From Oculatellaceae cyanobacterium bins.114 (GTDB lineage: Bacteria > Cyanobacteriota > Cyanobacteriia > Elainellales > Elainellaceae): a stretch of DNA of 29,239 nt. This document shows, piece by piece, positions 26,989 through 29,180 of the stretch. Below the pieces are notes generated by a model, which worked only from the letters and a program-made list of their open reading frames with translations, made no database searches and was not told where the DNA came from. Numbering within the stretch: position 1 is the stretch's first letter; every line of letters starts with the position of its first letter. The DNA is taken from positions 1 to 29,239 of the forward strand of contig JANRJA010000165.1 in NCBI GenBank assembly GCA_033764315.1. Reading direction: 5' to 3'. Made by a program: the position numbers and the translations under genes.

Positions 26989-27060
26989 ATGTCCCGGCAG
27001 GATTTGAACCTGCAACCCTCTGTTTGTAAGACAGATGCTCCACCCTTGAGCTACAGGACT
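26989..27060 (-). tRNA. trnV: tRNA-Val(TAC), 1:72 mismatch, possibly degenerate
   Basis: Anticodon arm TCTGT-CTTACAA-ACAGA; T arm GCAGG-TTCAAAT-CCTGC; acceptor AGTCCTG/CGGGACA; no CCA. Confidence 0.8.
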
Positions 27061-27065
27061 ACGAG

Positions 27066-27137
27066 AGCGGATGATGGGACTCGAACCCATGCGCTGAGTG
27101 TGGCGCACTCAGATGCTTGCCGCTACATCACACCCGC
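27066..27137 (-). tRNA. trnG: tRNA-Gly(GCC) with C33
   Basis: TGAGT-GCGCCAC-ACTCA; acceptor GCGGGTG/CATCCGC; U73; no CCA. Confidence 0.8.
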
Positions 27138-27143
27138 ATTTTT

Positions 27144-27218
27144 TGGAGCGAAAGACGAGATTCGAACTCGTGTCTCCTGGTTGGAAGCCAGGGATGCTTG
27201 CCGCTGCACCACATTCGC
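27144..27218 (-). tRNA. trnG: tRNA-Gly(TCC)
   Basis: CCTGG-CTTCCAA-CCAGG; U73-CCA. Confidence 0.9.
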
Positions 27219-27222
27219 ATTC

Positions 27223-27298
27223 TGGGGCTGGTGACAGGATTTGAACCTGCAACCTTTCGCTTACAAGGCGATTGCTCTTCCGACTGAGCTACACCAGC
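27223..27298 (-). tRNA. trnT: tRNA-Thr(TGT)
   Basis: TCGC-CTTGTAA-GCGA; acceptor GCTGGTG/CACCAGC; C73-CCA. Confidence 0.92.
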
Positions 27299-27301
27299 AT
27301 A

Positions 27302-27374
27302 AGCAGATGGCGAGGCTTGAACTCGCGTCCAGGACATACCAAATCCTGATGCTGACCGACTACACCACATCTGC
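27302..27374 (-). tRNA. trnT: tRNA-Thr(GGT)
   Basis: AGGAT-TTGGTAT-GTCCT; acceptor GCAGATG/CATCTGC; U73; no CCA. Confidence 0.82.
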
Positions 27375-27377
27375 ATT

Positions 27378-27452
27378 TGGAGCAGGTGACAGGAGTTGAA
27401 CCTGCATGAAGGCTGTACGAAAACCTCATGTTGCCCGTTACATCACACCTGC
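27378..27452 (-). tRNA. trnT: tRNA-Thr(CGT)
   Basis: AGGTT-TTCGTAC-AGCCT; acceptor GCAGGTG/CACCTGC; U73-CCA. Confidence 0.85.
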
Positions 27453-27458
27453 ATTGGT

Positions 27459-27556
27459 TGGACGCGGGGGTGAGAGTTGCACTCACCGTTGCGAAGCACT
27501 CCCGAAGGGAACCGCAGCTTATGAGACTGCTGAGCCGCTCTTGCTCTATCCCCGCT
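27459..27556 (-). tRNA. atypical tRNA with CAT anticodon (Met/fMet/Ile2 unresolved), 27-nt variable region
   Basis: AGCGGGG-ATA-GAGC-AAGAGCG-GCTC-A-GCAGT-CTCATAA-GCTGC-[27 nt]-GTGAG-TGCAACT-CTCAC-CCCCGCG-T-CCA. Confidence 0.75.
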
Positions 27557-27557
27557 A

Positions 27558-27631
27558 TACCCCCGGCGAGAGTCGAACTCGCAACAATCCGGGTTTAAGC
27601 CGGGTACGTCTGCCAATTGCGTCACAGGGGC
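27558..27631 (-). tRNA. trnL: tRNA-Leu(TAA), short variable loop
   Basis: CCGG-CTTAAAC-CCGG; variable TTGTT; G1.U72, A73; no CCA. Confidence 0.85.
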
Positions 27632-27634
27632 ATT

Positions 27635-27710
27635 TGGTGGGTTGTATAGGGTTTGAACCTATGCACTTCCGCTTAAGAGGCGGCTGCTCTACCAACTGAG
27701 CTAACAACCC
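27635..27710 (-). tRNA. trnK: tRNA-Lys(CTT)
   Basis: CCGC-CTCTTAA-GCGG; acceptor GGGTTGT/ACAACCC; A73-CCA. Confidence 0.93.
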
Positions 27711-27741
27711 GTTTTTCTGCTAGTCAACCGAAGGTTGAACT

Positions 27742-27817
27742 TGGTGGGTCGCCAGAGATTTGAACTCTGATCTGTCTGCTTAAAAGGCAGCCACTCTAAC
27801 CGTTGAGCTAACGACCC
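27742..27817 (-). tRNA. trnK: tRNA-Lys(TTT)
   Basis: CTGC-CTTTTAA-GCAG; acceptor GGGTCGT/GCGACCC; A73-CCA. Confidence 0.9.
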
Positions 27818-27820
27818 GAA

Positions 27821-27895
27821 TGGTCTGAGTGATAGGGATTGAACCTACGACCTCCGGTTCCCCGAACCGACGTGCTCCCACTGCACCACACTCAG
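27821..27895 (-). tRNA. trnP: tRNA-Pro(GGG) with C33
   Basis: TCGGT-TCGGGGA-ACCGG; C1-G72; A73-CCA. Confidence 0.82.
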
Positions 27896-27900
27896 ATATG

Positions 27901-27978
27901 TGGTACACCGAGCAGGAGTTGAACCTGCTAATAACACGCTTATCGGGCGTGCGCGTCCACCACTTCCGCCTTCGGTGC
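27901..27978 (-). tRNA. trnI: tRNA with GAT (Ile) anticodon, C33, Leu-like body
   Basis: CACGC-CCGATAA-GCGTG; D arm GCG-GAAGTGGTGGA-CGC; G1.U72; A73-CCA. Confidence 0.75.
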
Positions 27979-27979
27979 T

Positions 27980-28055
27980 TGGTACTCCCGGTGGGAATCG
28001 AACCCACAAAATCTAGATCCTCGGTCTAGAGCGTCTTCCCTTCCGCCACAGGAGC
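27980..28055 (-). tRNA. trnL: tRNA-Leu(GAG) with C33, short variable loop
   Basis: CTAGA-CCGAGGA-TCTAG; variable ATTTT; G1.U72; A73-CCA. Confidence 0.8.
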
Positions 28056-28060
28056 ATCAG

Positions 28061-28134
28061 TACCCTTGGTGGGAGTCGAACCCACAAAATCTGGTCTCTC
28101 AAGCCAGCACGTCTGCCAGTTGGGTCACAAGGGC
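28061..28134 (-). tRNA. trnL: tRNA-Leu(GAG) with U33, short variable loop
   Basis: CTGGC-TTGAGAG-ACCAG (C31.A39 mismatch); variable ATTTT; A73; no CCA. Confidence 0.78.
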
Positions 28135-28137
28135 AAA

Positions 28138-28213
28138 TGGTCGGGATGGTAGGATTTGAACCCACGACTCCTTGGTCCCAAACCAAGGCTTCTGACCACT
28201 GAATTACATCCCG
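28138..28213 (-). tRNA. trnP: tRNA-Pro(TGG)
   Basis: CTTGG-TTTGGGA-CCAAG; acceptor CGGGATG/CATCCCG; A73-CCA. Confidence 0.93.
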
Positions 28214-28218
28214 ATACT

Positions 28219-28295
28219 TGGTACTGCTGGTGGGATTTGAACCCACAACCTCTGGTTTCTAAGACCAGCACCTCTTCCAGTTGGGCTACAGCAGC
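28219..28295 (-). tRNA. trnL: tRNA-Leu(TAG), short variable loop
   Basis: CTGGT-CTTAGAA-ACCAG; variable AGGTT; G1.U72; A73-CCA. Confidence 0.88.
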
Positions 28296-28300
28296 ATAAT

Positions 28301-28377
28301 TGGTACTCCTGGCAGGAGTCGAACCCGCACATGACTGGTTTTGAGACAGCTGCCTCTTCCGATTGGGCTACAGGAGT
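28301..28377 (-). tRNA. trnL: tRNA-Leu(CAA), short variable loop
   Basis: GCTGT-CTCAAAA-CCAGT; variable CATGT; acceptor ACTCCTG/CAGGAGT; A73-CCA. Confidence 0.85.
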
Positions 28378-28383
28378 GAGACA

Positions 28384-28428
28384 TGGGAGGAATACAGGGG
28401 ACTGCCCCAGGCGACTGTTTACCTCCCA
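28384..28428 (-). ncRNA. non-tRNA structured element embedded in the array
   Basis: TGGGAGG...CCTCCCA 7-bp stem enclosing ACAG/CTGT and GGGG-CAGT-CCCC pairings; no T-loop or anticodon arm. Confidence 0.4.
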
Positions 28429-28429
28429 A

Positions 28430-28501
28430 CTGCCCCGCCAGGGTTTAAACCTGGAACTTCGCTTTCAAAGAGCGAGATGTTGCCAGTTACACCACAAGGC
28501 A
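28430..28501 (-). tRNA. trnQ: tRNA-Gln(TTG)
   Basis: TCGCT-CTTTGAA-AGCGA; U1-A72; G73; T loop TTTAAAC; no CCA. Confidence 0.85.
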
Positions 28502-28507
28502 TTGAAT

Positions 28508-28584
28508 TGGATGCCGAGGCTGGGGTCGAACCAGCATCTCCGTGATTCAGAGTCACAGCGACTTTCCATGTCGTCCACTCGGCA
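28508..28584 (-). tRNA. trnQ: tRNA-Gln(CTG)
   Basis: TGTGA-CTCTGAA-TCACG; acceptor TGCCGAG/CTCGGCA; U73-CCA. Confidence 0.85.
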
Positions 28585-28589
28585 ATGAA

Positions 28590-28664
28590 TGGCTGCCCCA
28601 GCAGGACTTGAACCTGCAACCTCGCGGTTAACAGCCGCTCGCTCTGCCATTGAGCTATAGGGCA
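28590..28664 (-). tRNA. trnN: tRNA-Asn(GTT)
   Basis: GCGG-CTGTTAA-CCGC; U1-A72; G73-CCA. Confidence 0.93.
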
Positions 28665-28669
28665 ATGAG

Positions 28670-28742
28670 TGGGAAGTGACGGGATCGAACCGCCATCTCG
28701 CCGTCTTCAGCGGCACGTGAGCACCAGCTTCACCAACTTCCC
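28670..28742 (-). tRNA. trnF: tRNA-Phe(GAA)
   Basis: TGCCG-CTGAAGA-CGGCG; acceptor GGGAAGT/ACTTCCC; A73; no CCA. Confidence 0.85.
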
Positions 28743-28747
28743 ACAAG

Positions 28748-28835
28748 CGGAGGCTAAGAGAATCGAACTCTTGACGGTATATTTCACCCGCAGGCGTTTT
28801 CAAGACGCTTTCCTCGTCCGTGCCGGACAACCTCC
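28748..28835 (-). tRNA. trnS: tRNA-Ser(TGA)
   Basis: GCGT-CTTGAAA-ACGC; long variable arm; acceptor GGAGGTT/AGCCTCC; G73; no CCA. Confidence 0.85.
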
Positions 28836-28840
28836 CTGTT

Positions 28841-28917
28841 TGGCGAGGACGGAGGGACTCAAACCCCCACTCTTCAGGTTCGTAATCTGAGATGTTGTTC
28901 AGTTACACCACGTCCTC
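28841..28917 (-). tRNA. trnR: tRNA-Arg(ACG)
   Basis: TCAGA-TTACGAA-CCTGA; acceptor GAGGACG/CGTCCTC; A20; G73-CCA. Confidence 0.85.
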
Positions 28918-28922
28918 AAAGG

Positions 28923-29003
28923 CGGAGAGTAGTGGAATCGAACCACAATTGTTCATCCATCTGTTTAGCAAACAGCGCCAACGTCCTAATTGGTTTACTC
29001 TCC
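28923..29003 (-). tRNA. trnS: tRNA-Ser(GCT)
   Basis: CTGT-TTGCTAA-ACAG; acceptor GGAGAGT/ACTCTCC; G73 followed by CCT; weakly paired 12-nt variable arm. Confidence 0.78.
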
Positions 29004-29008
29004 ATGAT

Positions 29009-29093
29009 TGGTAGGTCGGGCAGGAGTCGCACCTGCAACGCAAGAAGCGGCTGTTTTACAGACAGTTGCCCACGCTGATAGGCGAGCCGACCT
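29009..29093 (-). tRNA. trnY: tRNA-Tyr(GTA), non-canonical D/T loops
   Basis: CTGT-CTGTAAA-ACAG; 13-nt variable arm; T loop TGCGACT; acceptor AGGTCGG/CCGACCT; A73-CCA. Confidence 0.82.
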
Positions 29094-29103
29094 ATGTCGA
29101 ATT

Positions 29104-29180
29104 TGGCAGTGCCGACGGGAGTTGAACCCGCAAACGCAGCATTGAAAGTGCTGTGGCTTTACCGATTTGCCTACGGCACC
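29104..29180 (-). tRNA. trnE: tRNA-Glu(TTC)
   Basis: CAGCA-CTTTCAA-TGCTG; acceptor GGTGCCG/CGGCACT; G73-CCA. Confidence 0.88.

Follow-up and report, generated by a model that had tools for sequence, protein, structure and literature searches.

A tRNA gene array homologous to the Anabaena trn operon beside core genes of Oculatellaceae cyanobacterium bins.114

The DNA analysed here (the window, 29,239 nt) is the entire contig JANRJA010000165.1, referred to as C69, of Oculatellaceae cyanobacterium bins.114 (GCA_033764315.1; genome label G000, other genomes and contigs being numbered likewise), a draft assembly of 251 contigs with an estimated completeness of 90.7%. Its right end carries an array of 26 tRNA genes within 2,192 bp (26989–29180), all on the minus strand, in the transcription order E,Y,S,R,S,F,N,Q,Q,L,L,P,L,L,I,P,K,K,L,CAU,T,T,T,G,G,V. 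The genes were called with ARAGORN at default settings, with ARAGORN using the intron and low-threshold options, and with the Rfam tRNA model (cut-off 29 bits). Default ARAGORN finds 24 minus-strand genes in this interval, the Tyr and CAU genes needing the additional options; the Rfam cut-off is passed by 21 of the 26 (39.7–70.1 bits), plus Gln(CUG) at 42.4 bits in a separate search. A first-pass annotation made from the letters had listed 26 genes in this order, and all 26 match the genes called here. The features are given below in order of transcription, with their supporting evidence; C117 is a second contig of the same genome.

29181–29239, minus strand: spacer 5′ of tRNA-Glu, reaching the contig end; aligns to C117:176–234 with few differences
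29104–29180, minus strand: tRNA-Glu(UUC), C69 variant copy; ARAGORN, Rfam 64.2 bits
29009–29093, minus strand: tRNA-Tyr(GUA) with a long extra arm; ARAGORN, Rfam 28.1 bits (below 29), fold z = -2.5
28921–29003, minus strand: tRNA-Ser(GCU); ARAGORN, weak Rfam match (tRNA-Sec model, 33.2 bits)
28841–28917, minus strand: tRNA-Arg(ACG); ARAGORN, Rfam 49.4 bits
28747–28835, minus strand: tRNA-Ser(UGA); ARAGORN, weak Rfam match (tRNA-Sec model, 31.2 bits)
28669–28742, minus strand: tRNA-Phe(GAA); ARAGORN, Rfam 53.5 bits
28590–28664, minus strand: tRNA-Asn(GUU); ARAGORN, Rfam 65.5 bits
28508–28584, minus strand: tRNA-Gln(CUG); ARAGORN, Rfam 42.4 bits
28430–28501, minus strand: tRNA-Gln(UUG); ARAGORN, Rfam 52 bits
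28301–28377, minus strand: tRNA-Leu(CAA), class-I shape without long extra arm; ARAGORN, Rfam 50.4 bits, covariation
28219–28295, minus strand: tRNA-Leu(UAG), class-I shape; ARAGORN, Rfam 63.6 bits, covariation
28138–28213, minus strand: tRNA-Pro(UGG); ARAGORN, Rfam 61.7 bits
28060–28134, minus strand: tRNA-Leu(GAG), class-I shape, in the Leu(CAG) slot; ARAGORN, Rfam 39.7 bits
27980–28055, minus strand: tRNA-Leu(GAG), class-I shape; ARAGORN, Rfam 52.2 bits, covariation
27901–27978, minus strand: tRNA-Ile(GAU) with a 3-bp D-stem and a large D-loop; ARAGORN, Rfam 44.9 bits
27821–27895, minus strand: tRNA-Pro(GGG); ARAGORN, Rfam 57.6 bits
27742–27817, minus strand: tRNA-Lys(UUU); ARAGORN, Rfam 60.2 bits
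27635–27710, minus strand: tRNA-Lys(CUU); ARAGORN, Rfam 69.3 bits
27557–27632, minus strand: tRNA-Leu(UAA), class-I shape; ARAGORN, Rfam 48.9 bits, covariation
27459–27556, minus strand: tRNA with CAU anticodon (Met or Ile2 type), 98 nt; ARAGORN, ortholog alignment
27378–27452, minus strand: tRNA-Thr(CGU); ARAGORN, Rfam 50.5 bits
27302–27374, minus strand: tRNA-Thr(GGU); ARAGORN, Rfam 53.4 bits
27223–27298, minus strand: tRNA-Thr(UGU); ARAGORN, Rfam 70.1 bits
27144–27218, minus strand: tRNA-Gly(UCC); ARAGORN, Rfam 62.5 bits
27065–27137, minus strand: tRNA-Gly(GCC); ARAGORN, Rfam 42.7 bits
26989–27060, minus strand: tRNA-Val(UAC), last gene of this array copy; ARAGORN, Rfam 62.1 bits

With a probability that we put at about 0.88, the array is a member of the cyanobacterial L-array family and a homolog of the trn operon of Anabaena/Nostoc PCC 7120; arrays of this kind are already known. 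L-arrays are described as long runs of same-direction tRNA genes with short spacers and up to 43 genes, well beyond the length that accretion produces (Santamaria-Gomez et al. 2021, PMC8421152). The 26 genes of the window lie on one strand in 2,192 bp, are supernumerary to a scattered tRNA set, and belong to an array with a patchy distribution. The closest full-length match in the plasmid collection is on replicon pA of Kovacikia minuta CCNUW1 (NZ_CP083583.1, unannotated), with 82% identity over 100% of the query. Partial matches were found on 15 further cyanobacterial plasmids (from Nostoc, Tolypothrix and Calothrix), including NC_003273, the delta plasmid of PCC 7120. The gene order is common to the 12 arrays compared, a set that includes those of PCC 7120, Kovacikia minuta and relatives of G000. 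The relationship to the PCC 7120 operon proposed in the first-pass annotation is borne out by the NC_003273 match and by the shared gene order. In Anabaena, 23 of the 26 operonic tRNAs are reported to be charged in vivo and the operon to aid survival; a conserved HNH gene lies upstream, and 9-nt direct repeats extend over the -10 box of the trn promoter (PMC8421152).

The array does not end with the contig. A second tRNA cluster lies on the same strand at the start of C117 (25.8 kb) and comprises, in transcription order, Asp, Glu(CUC), Arg(CCG), Cys, Met, Trp and Glu(UUC) genes. From 29032 on, inside the Tyr gene, C69 is identical to the first 55 nt of C117, and in the alignment this identity reaches ~67 nt. 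A single contig of the relative G005 matches the head of C117 (92%) as well as the window array, and in Kovacikia minuta the array is unbroken, in the order D E R C M W E ... V. Among the 12 arrays, 10 begin with Asp and 11 have Met-Trp immediately 5′ of Glu(UUC). This pattern indicates that C117 carries the 5′ part of the array and that the assembly cuts the array at the end of C69. Counted over both contigs, the array comprises 32 tRNA genes (33 should the two Glu variants truly adjoin) and covers 18 amino acids; the window holds its downstream three quarters. The size of 26 given at first pass thus has to be raised to 32–33. The first-pass annotation correctly noted that the window lacks Ala, Asp, Cys, His and Trp genes, but the gap is an artefact of the contig end, with the genes on C117; Asp, Cys and Trp are missing from the window because they lie beyond that end. 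In genome annotation, the amino-acid coverage of a tRNA array that runs to a contig end should be interpreted only once the partner contig has been joined on.

Some tRNA-like elements were noted in this 5′ segment. Between Arg(CCG) and Cys, an 82-nt element (C117:552–633, minus strand) has a perfect T-arm, an ACCA end and a degenerate middle; it gives an Rfam tmRNA match of 34.9 bits, below the cut-off, and a gap of similar size occurs at the same place in Kovacikia. The Trp-Glu spacer (C117:235–319, minus strand) ends in a tRNA-like T-arm plus ...CCUCCGCCA, followed by an 8-bp hairpin (CAGCCUCC...GGAGGCUG). A contig from one public soil run (X1) has the same T-arm-like and hairpin element 5′ of a C69-type Glu gene.

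The array tRNAs differ measurably from the scattered set, which consists of 36 genes on 28 other contigs of G000. A scattered partner of the same anticodon exists for 24 of the 35 array-set genes, the remaining 11 not being judgeable in an incomplete draft; identity between partners is 61% in the median (range 55–78%, 24 pairs). Rfam scores are lower in the array, with medians of 56.8 bits (30 array genes) and 65.6 bits (35 scattered genes; one-sided Mann-Whitney p = 4e-5). Read by eye at the 3′ ends, CCA is encoded after the discriminator in ~22 of the 35 array-set genes vs 1 of the 36 scattered genes; an automated count of 24/35 vs 7/36 is crude and includes acceptor-stem look-alikes. All five Leu genes of the window are 75–77 nt long and lack the long extra arm, as do the Leu genes of the other compared arrays. 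The low identity, the lower scores and these armless Leu genes agree with the earlier description of the tRNAs as atypical.

Across 49 distinct sequences from 12 arrays, compensatory changes are found at 16 of 20 cloverleaf pairs of the class-I Leu genes, and A73, A14-A15, G18-G19 and U48 are retained. These nucleotides are the identity elements required by bacterial LeuRS, which can do without the long arm (PMC9976931). Leu variable loops of 5–18 nt are given without comment in one cyanobacterial tRNA survey (PMC6933170). At least for the Leu genes, on which covariation was computed, structural selection keeps the array tRNAs as tRNAs; the CAU gene is doubtful. In the Leu(CAG) slot (28060–28134), the GAG anticodon corresponds to a change of C34 to G34, the orthologs in other arrays reading CAG. 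The CAU gene gives no Rfam match at E≤1 and aligns over its full length to 11 orthologs (72–78 nt) in other arrays; it contains a 22-nt variable-loop insert with a UUCG hairpin that is unique to G000. A mobile mini-repeat as the origin of this insert is not supported: with up to 4 substitutions allowed, the genome contains no second copy, and a search with the 16-nt core adds a single weak match.

Further peculiarities of single genes were recorded. In arrays of relatives (G019:C11, G002:C126, G017:C36), ARAGORN reports individual genes that have an insert within or close to the anticodon loop, for example a Thr(UGU) gene of 170 nt and a Cys(GCA) gene of 271 nt, and inserts may be common across this array family. 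The Ile(GAU) gene at 27901–27978 has A rather than U at position 8 and shares the D-loop sequence GAAGUGGUGGA with a His(GUG) gene at C117:10732–10805. Elsewhere in the genome, C141:46345–46413 (minus strand) is a weak extra Rfam tRNA match (33.3 bits) that default ARAGORN does not call, and C122:27479–27560 (plus strand) is an 82-nt ARAGORN tRNA-Pro(AGG) without an Rfam tRNA match at E≤0.01, which is probably a false call or a degenerate gene.

The first-pass annotation had advised looking beyond 29239 for a promoter, a repressor site, and HNH or RtcB genes. The spacer at 29181–29239 is internal to the array and is not a promoter. Across C117 and C69, the layout in the direction of transcription is an operator, an HNH gene, an alr0857-family gene, a promoter with TTGTAGTAT direct repeats, a leader of ~280 nt, and then Asp-Glu-Arg-(tRNA-like)-Cys-Met-Trp-Glu-Tyr-...-Val. 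In Anabaena, the ribbon-helix-helix (RHH) repressor TrcR was footprinted on the box TGTAGTAT at the trn promoter (PMC10272220, 2023). Five boxes of this type, two of them exact, lie at C117:1209–1258, ~280 nt 5′ of tRNA-Asp, as direct repeats containing TAGTAT; the 29181–29239 spacer has none. In 16 kb of C117 there are 18 TGTAGTAT matches vs 6.3 expected, a number reached in 0 of 200 shuffles. The HNH gene (C117:1771–2340, Pfam HNH/HNH_5) encodes a protein that shares 80% identity with All8564 and 96% with its Kovacikia and G005 counterparts, and HNH genes adjoin 7 arrays in 4 relatives. A palindromic box pair lies 5′ of it at C117:2636–2653. The 137-aa open reading frame (ORF) between HNH and promoter belongs to the NCBIfam family alr0857_fam (117 bits vs a cut-off of 75). 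A 72-aa ORF at C117:2377–2595 has no family match and looks non-coding. The promoter with TrcR-type repeats and the HNH gene were found next to the array, and rtcB was found elsewhere in the genome under the same boxes.

Genome-wide, there are 42 clusters of at least two boxes, 6 of which include two exact boxes. The sites of interest are as follows.

C117:1209–1258: tRNA array downstream
C34: rsgA-rtcB downstream
C174: AAA ATPase gene downstream
C198: GNAT gene downstream
C117:11168–11217 (second promoter copy): Val fragment, Ala, His, Tpt1/KptA and GNAT genes downstream
C106:27479–27497 and C209:61844–61860: two exact tandem TGTAGTAT boxes each, no clear target

The TrcR regulon of Anabaena lists rtcB, rsgA, HNH, GNAT and AAA genes (PMC10272220, Table 1), and the predicted targets in G000 match it. 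No convincing regulated gene was seen among the small ORFs near the C106 and C209 boxes. The C209 boxes lie upstream of a metallophosphoesterase gene on the opposite strand; those on C106 are followed by ~250 nt without an ORF, possibly a small RNA.

A candidate for the repressor itself is encoded on C87. The sequence at C87:23104–23121 is identical, letter for letter, to the published 18-nt autoregulatory operator of trcR, and 3′ of it lies a gene (23209–23544) for a protein of 111 aa whose N-terminus is RHH-like and whose residue 44 is Leu. Mutation of Leu44 inactivates TrcR (PMC10272220). The sole homologs in the phage collection are those of the Nodularia phages named in the same paper. 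The candidate has 1,441 homologs at E≤1e-5; among the best 120 of these, the named organisms are all cyanobacteria and the functional labels are RHH/CopG-type regulator or DNA-binding protein. A gene of the alr0857 family stands divergently beside it. In Anabaena, alr0857 is likewise near trcR. The C87 protein is accordingly treated here as a TrcR candidate.

A second copy of the promoter and leader (C117:10990–11290), with three one-mismatch boxes, lies ~10 kb upstream of the main one. Downstream of it come the final 41 nt of a Val gene, an Ala(UGC) gene (10809–10881, 65.7 bits) and a His(GUG) gene (10732–10805, minus strand, Rfam 48.1 bits) that ARAGORN missed and that has no encoded G-1. 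The 3′ genes of this unit are those for a Tpt1/KptA RNA 2′-phosphotransferase and a GNAT protein. Since Val-Arg(UCU)-Ala-His forms the tail of the PCC 7120 and G005 arrays, the second unit looks like a collapsed array copy in which the whole stretch from Asp to mid-Val has been lost. Between them, the main array and the second unit encode tRNAs for all 20 amino acids. Neither Tpt1/KptA nor the 279-aa GNAT protein is encoded beside the arrays at the other loci compared; therefore the link to the array may be local to G000, where the Ala-His-Tpt1 unit and the array may form a complete 20-amino-acid reserve set coupled to an RNA 2′-phosphotransferase. As a detail of the His gene, U stands at position -1, beside a C73 discriminator.

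The main leader contains a 64-codon ORF (C117:1181–990, minus strand) preceded by GAGGAG. It is intact at exactly 64 codons in 6 of 8 long leaders, the other 2 having one stop each; it is truncated in the second promoter copy and absent from the short leaders of PCC 7120 and G005. Over the 8 leaders, the three frames hold 2, 29 and 13 stops, and only 3.3% of shuffled versions of the G000 ORF stay open. A large protein collection, which holds called ORFs only and is thus biased towards intact copies, yields 28 homolog clusters, 25 of exactly 64 aa, and the named ones are all Leptolyngbyales-type cyanobacteria. The substitution pattern (dN/dS 0.37–1.18; 145/238/227 differences by codon position, without a third-position excess) is neutral or speaks against a real ORF. 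Because the best-conserved codons of the ORF fall on invariant RNA blocks that are complementary to one another, the conservation could equally act at the RNA level. The complementary invariant segments are CUCUUGAAG and CUUCAAGAG, and a third copy, CUUGAA, stands just before tRNA-Asp. A conserved leader RNA structure has no statistical support: RNAalifold over the 8 leaders gives a covariation term of -0.09 with compensatory changes at 3 of 55 pairs, and the helices rest on the invariant blocks.

We offer it as a tentative idea, and one that may well prove wrong, that in Leptolyngbyales-type arrays a translated 64-residue leader peptide would co-set expression besides TrcR; its translation would pass through the two complementary segments, and ribosome speed or stalling would directly set the fate of the tRNA precursor. 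Translation-initiation control cannot be the output of such a leader, because the downstream genes are tRNAs. If the idea is correct, there would be a cis-acting sensor of translational stress before a tRNA operon, which could be the signal path left open by the TrcR paper. Leader peptide, attenuation and phosphotransferase are not mentioned in the main texts of PMC8421152 and PMC10272220 (supplements aside), and a literature search combining tRNA array and leader peptide returned nothing beyond these two papers.

The array lies next to chromosomal core genes, as had been stated at first pass; among the 18 ORFs of the window, Pfam identifies hisF/A-type, aminotransferase, accD, thf1, ABC transporter and aroB genes. 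The features at the junction are listed here.

24827–25933, plus strand: aroB (3-dehydroquinate synthase, Pfam DHQ_synthase), last gene syntenic with the sister species and edge of the insertion
25958–26988, no strand assigned: G000-unique segment of ~1 kb between array and aroB, matching neither the sister species nor other arrays

Synteny with the sister species G001 extends from 14882 to 25957 and ends just past aroB; the sister species has no array there, and its flank downstream of the synteny end maps to a different contig of G000. The contig with aroB has no array in any of the 5 relatives examined. We surveyed 24 genomes of the same family and 16 from other families (multi-gene matches at E≤1e-50) and found arrays in 11 and 2 of them, respectively, some holding 2–3. 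In four relatives from other genera, the array-side HNH copies are 90–96% identical to that of G000 vs 73–77% for aroB; the order is reversed in the sister species (HNH 87% vs aroB 92%), and the identities of HNH and aroB are thus incongruent. The conserved module ends at C117:2730 and at window position 26989. At the latter, homology with other arrays breaks off precisely at the Val 3′ end; elsewhere, Arg(UCU) and Ala(UGC) follow. Directly 3′ of tRNA-Val, 26400–26951 (minus strand) is a remnant of a pentapeptide-repeat gene broken by frameshifts and stops, which may mark the gene into or beside which the array inserted. The HIP1 motif (GCGATCGC) occurs 56 times in 1–26409 and 0 times in 26410–29239, where ~6 sites would be expected at the window density, so that the reported lack of HIP1 sites in the array is confirmed. 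By sequence comparison, the module appears to be mobile and to travel with the HNH gene, its insertion after aroB being seen in this genome only. The synteny stop, the array-free aroB contigs and the patchy distribution agree with the horizontal acquisition proposed earlier.

Two other features of the window are worth recording. The gene at 18708–22493 (plus strand), syntenic with the sister species, encodes a protein of 1,261 aa in which an NB-ARC/NACHT-type (STAND) NTPase region precedes ASH/HYDIN-type Ig-like domains. An adjacent pair of genes for Uma2-family putative endonucleases is located at 15410–16036 (plus strand) and 16137–16910 (minus strand), and synteny with the sister species is broken around it (14882–15346, resuming from 16858).

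As conserved operators and regulon suggest induction by stress, we propose the following mechanism, in which TrcR repression, stress induction, co-transcription and tRNA charging are inferred by homology with Anabaena. The TrcR candidate (C87:23209–23544) would bind the repeats over the -10 box and silence both units, and the same repression would apply to the rsgA-rtcB, GNAT and AAA genes that have the same boxes. Impaired translation would lift the repression; one long transcript would then be made and processed into a spare set of tRNAs, most with encoded CCA, which would join translation and help the cell to survive.

Several observations weigh against this interpretation. The overlap of the boxes with the -10 box and the start site is predicted from TAGTAT inside the repeats. 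The TrcR candidate matches Pfam RHH_4 weakly (E = 0.1) and NCBIfam models at chance level, and it was assigned by operator identity, synteny and family rather than by alignment with All0854. A terminator scan 3′ of tRNA-Val gave none. Contigs from RNA libraries cover part of the array (X15 record 23, 28920–29239 with 7 differences; X16 record 30); they may be DNA carry-over and are no evidence of transcription. Possible signs of erosion are the Leu(CAG) to GAG change, the CAU-gene insert, a lost Arg(UCU)-Ala pair 3′ of Val, and the position of both Ser genes, Tyr and the CAU gene below the Rfam tRNA cut-off. Finally, the last 208 nt of C69 are a variant of C117:1–234 with a 26-nt indel in the Glu-Tyr spacer, both spacer variants are present in the soil run X1, and the junction is not bridged by contigs of the four public runs compared. 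The comparison with these runs used contigs only; the highest share of sampled words in any run was 0.57, and runs with a low share carry no information on habitat.

The last of these points bears on an alternative that we consider unlikely but worth some weight, namely that C69 and C117 are not joined, the genome holding two arrays or being a mix of strains, with the 5′ part and promoter of the window copy unassembled. Besides the indel and the two variants in X1, it is favoured by a remodelled Glu anticodon stem (the C69 Glu(UUC) differs from the copy at C117:99–175 by paired changes), by a C69 end that overlaps no other contig (its last 21–55 nt have no other occurrence in the assembly), and by the 2–3 arrays each in some relatives, e.g. 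G019, G038 and G001. Set against this, C117 reaches ~67 nt into the Tyr gene with letters identical to C69, and the 59 nt 5′ of the C69 Glu gene are homologous to an internal spacer of C117 and contain no operator boxes. Two copies would each show the standard family architecture, and the biological reading would be unchanged. The erosion signs raise the question of whether the array is a decaying relic, a silenced hitch-hiker kept because it is harmless while repressed. The unique CAU insertion, the truncated 3′ tail, the four genes under the tRNA cut-off, the scores below those of the scattered genes and the collapsed second copy would fit such a history, and silencing has been noted to favour fixation (PMC8421152). 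We nevertheless find it improbable, given that cloverleaf pairs are kept by compensatory change across 12 arrays, that operators, HNH, the alr0857-family gene and leader are conserved at 80–96%, that a matching regulon and a repressor candidate are present in the genome, and that the Anabaena homolog is functional (PMC8421152).

A role opposite to that of a reserve, in which part of the array is essential as the sole source of tRNA-Glu(UUC), Ile(GAU), Gly(UCC) and some other anticodons, is very improbable in our judgement. It is prompted by ten anticodons confined to the array set and by the lack of any Glu or Ile gene outside C69 and C117 in the draft (ARAGORN, Rfam tRNA model); a relaxed ARAGORN search for scattered copies (-ps85 -i) returned 7,445 predictions, essentially all spurious. 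Cyanobacteria also need tRNA-Glu for tetrapyrrole synthesis, and an operon under a repressor and operators is unlikely to be its sole source. Ile(GAU) and Ala(UGC) genes normally lie in rRNA operons, which are often lost from draft assemblies, and the missing scattered Glu and Ile genes are attributed to the incompleteness of a draft of 251 contigs that is 90.7% complete. A prophage or other phage-derived island as carrier of the array, a possibility raised in the first-pass annotation, has next to no chance of being correct. tRNA arrays accompanied by HNH or homing endonucleases are frequent in phages (PMC8421152), and TrcR-like proteins exist in Nodularia phages; yet Pfam finds no phage-type gene among 27 flanking ORFs (the 18 of the window and the 9 in the first 16 kb of C117), the flanks consist of hisF/A-type, accD, thf1, aroB, sensor kinase, Tpt1 and GNAT genes, and the conserved module is only ~5 kb long. 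Membership in the L-array family, with predicted TrcR-type control, remains our preferred reading.

Nowhere in bacteria is the division of a tRNA set between everyday use and an inducible reserve clearer than in L-arrays, and experimental study has so far been limited to the Anabaena operon. In G000, the module of operators, HNH, alr0857-family gene and array is found in a chromosome beside core genes, in a filamentous non-heterocystous lineage. The presence of a TrcR-type circuit, comprising a repressor candidate with an identical operator and rsgA-rtcB, GNAT and AAA targets, supports its generality in cyanobacteria rather than a peculiarity of one plasmid. The leader ORF, absent from the model strain, and the promoter-duplicated Ala-His-Tpt1 unit are testable additions.

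Among known systems, tRNA array units are defined by at least 20 tRNA genes at a density of at least 2 per kb (Tran et al. 2016, PMC4758250), and the G000 array, with 26 genes in 2.19 kb, falls within this definition; it resembles these units and the Mycobacterium arrays (PMC5966550) in being supernumerary and in its patchy distribution. Plasmids of Bacillales and Mycobacterium give weak single-gene matches only. To our knowledge, TrcR-type operators are not known in these tRNA arrays of other bacteria and phages. Leader peptides that sense stress by ribosome stalling are known in antibiotic-inducible genes of the erm, cat and cmlA type. The G000 leader shares with them a short ORF with a strong Shine-Dalgarno sequence between promoter and genes, overlapping complementary RNA segments; the homologous operon is likewise induced by ribosome-targeting drugs (PMC8421152). 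It differs in that the downstream genes are tRNAs and that no terminator was found and no stalling motif identified in it, so that the likeness is one of layout only.

The Kovacikia pA array is the same as that of G000 in its Asp-to-Val order, HNH, alr0857-family gene, promoter and intact 64-codon leader ORF. It is unbroken on a 1.2-Mb replicon, whereas the G000 array is split over two contigs, and unlike G000 it keeps Leu(CAG), a 72-nt CAU gene and a tail of Arg(UCU), Ala(UGC), Ser(GGA) and Met; no Tpt1/KptA gene was found in the 49 kb of its sequence examined. The PCC 7120 operon lies on a 55-kb plasmid, in contrast to the chromosomal context beside aroB. It has 26 genes vs 32–33 in G000, which has an added Arg-Cys-Met-Trp block and extra Thr, Gly, Lys, Pro and Ile(GAU) genes. 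The leader of PCC 7120 is ~130 nt long and lacks the 64-codon ORF found in the ~280-nt leader of G000, and G000 differs from PCC 7120 in having an alr0857-family gene between HNH and promoter. The Arg(UCU)-Ala-His tail of PCC 7120 is missing from the G000 array, Ala and His being in the separate unit with Tpt1/KptA. The two nevertheless share homologous tRNA genes in largely the same order, armless Leu tRNAs, an upstream HNH gene (80% identity to All8564), promoter repeats of the TGTAGTAT type, a trcR-like gene with an identical operator, and boxes elsewhere in the genome before rtcB, rsgA, GNAT and AAA genes.

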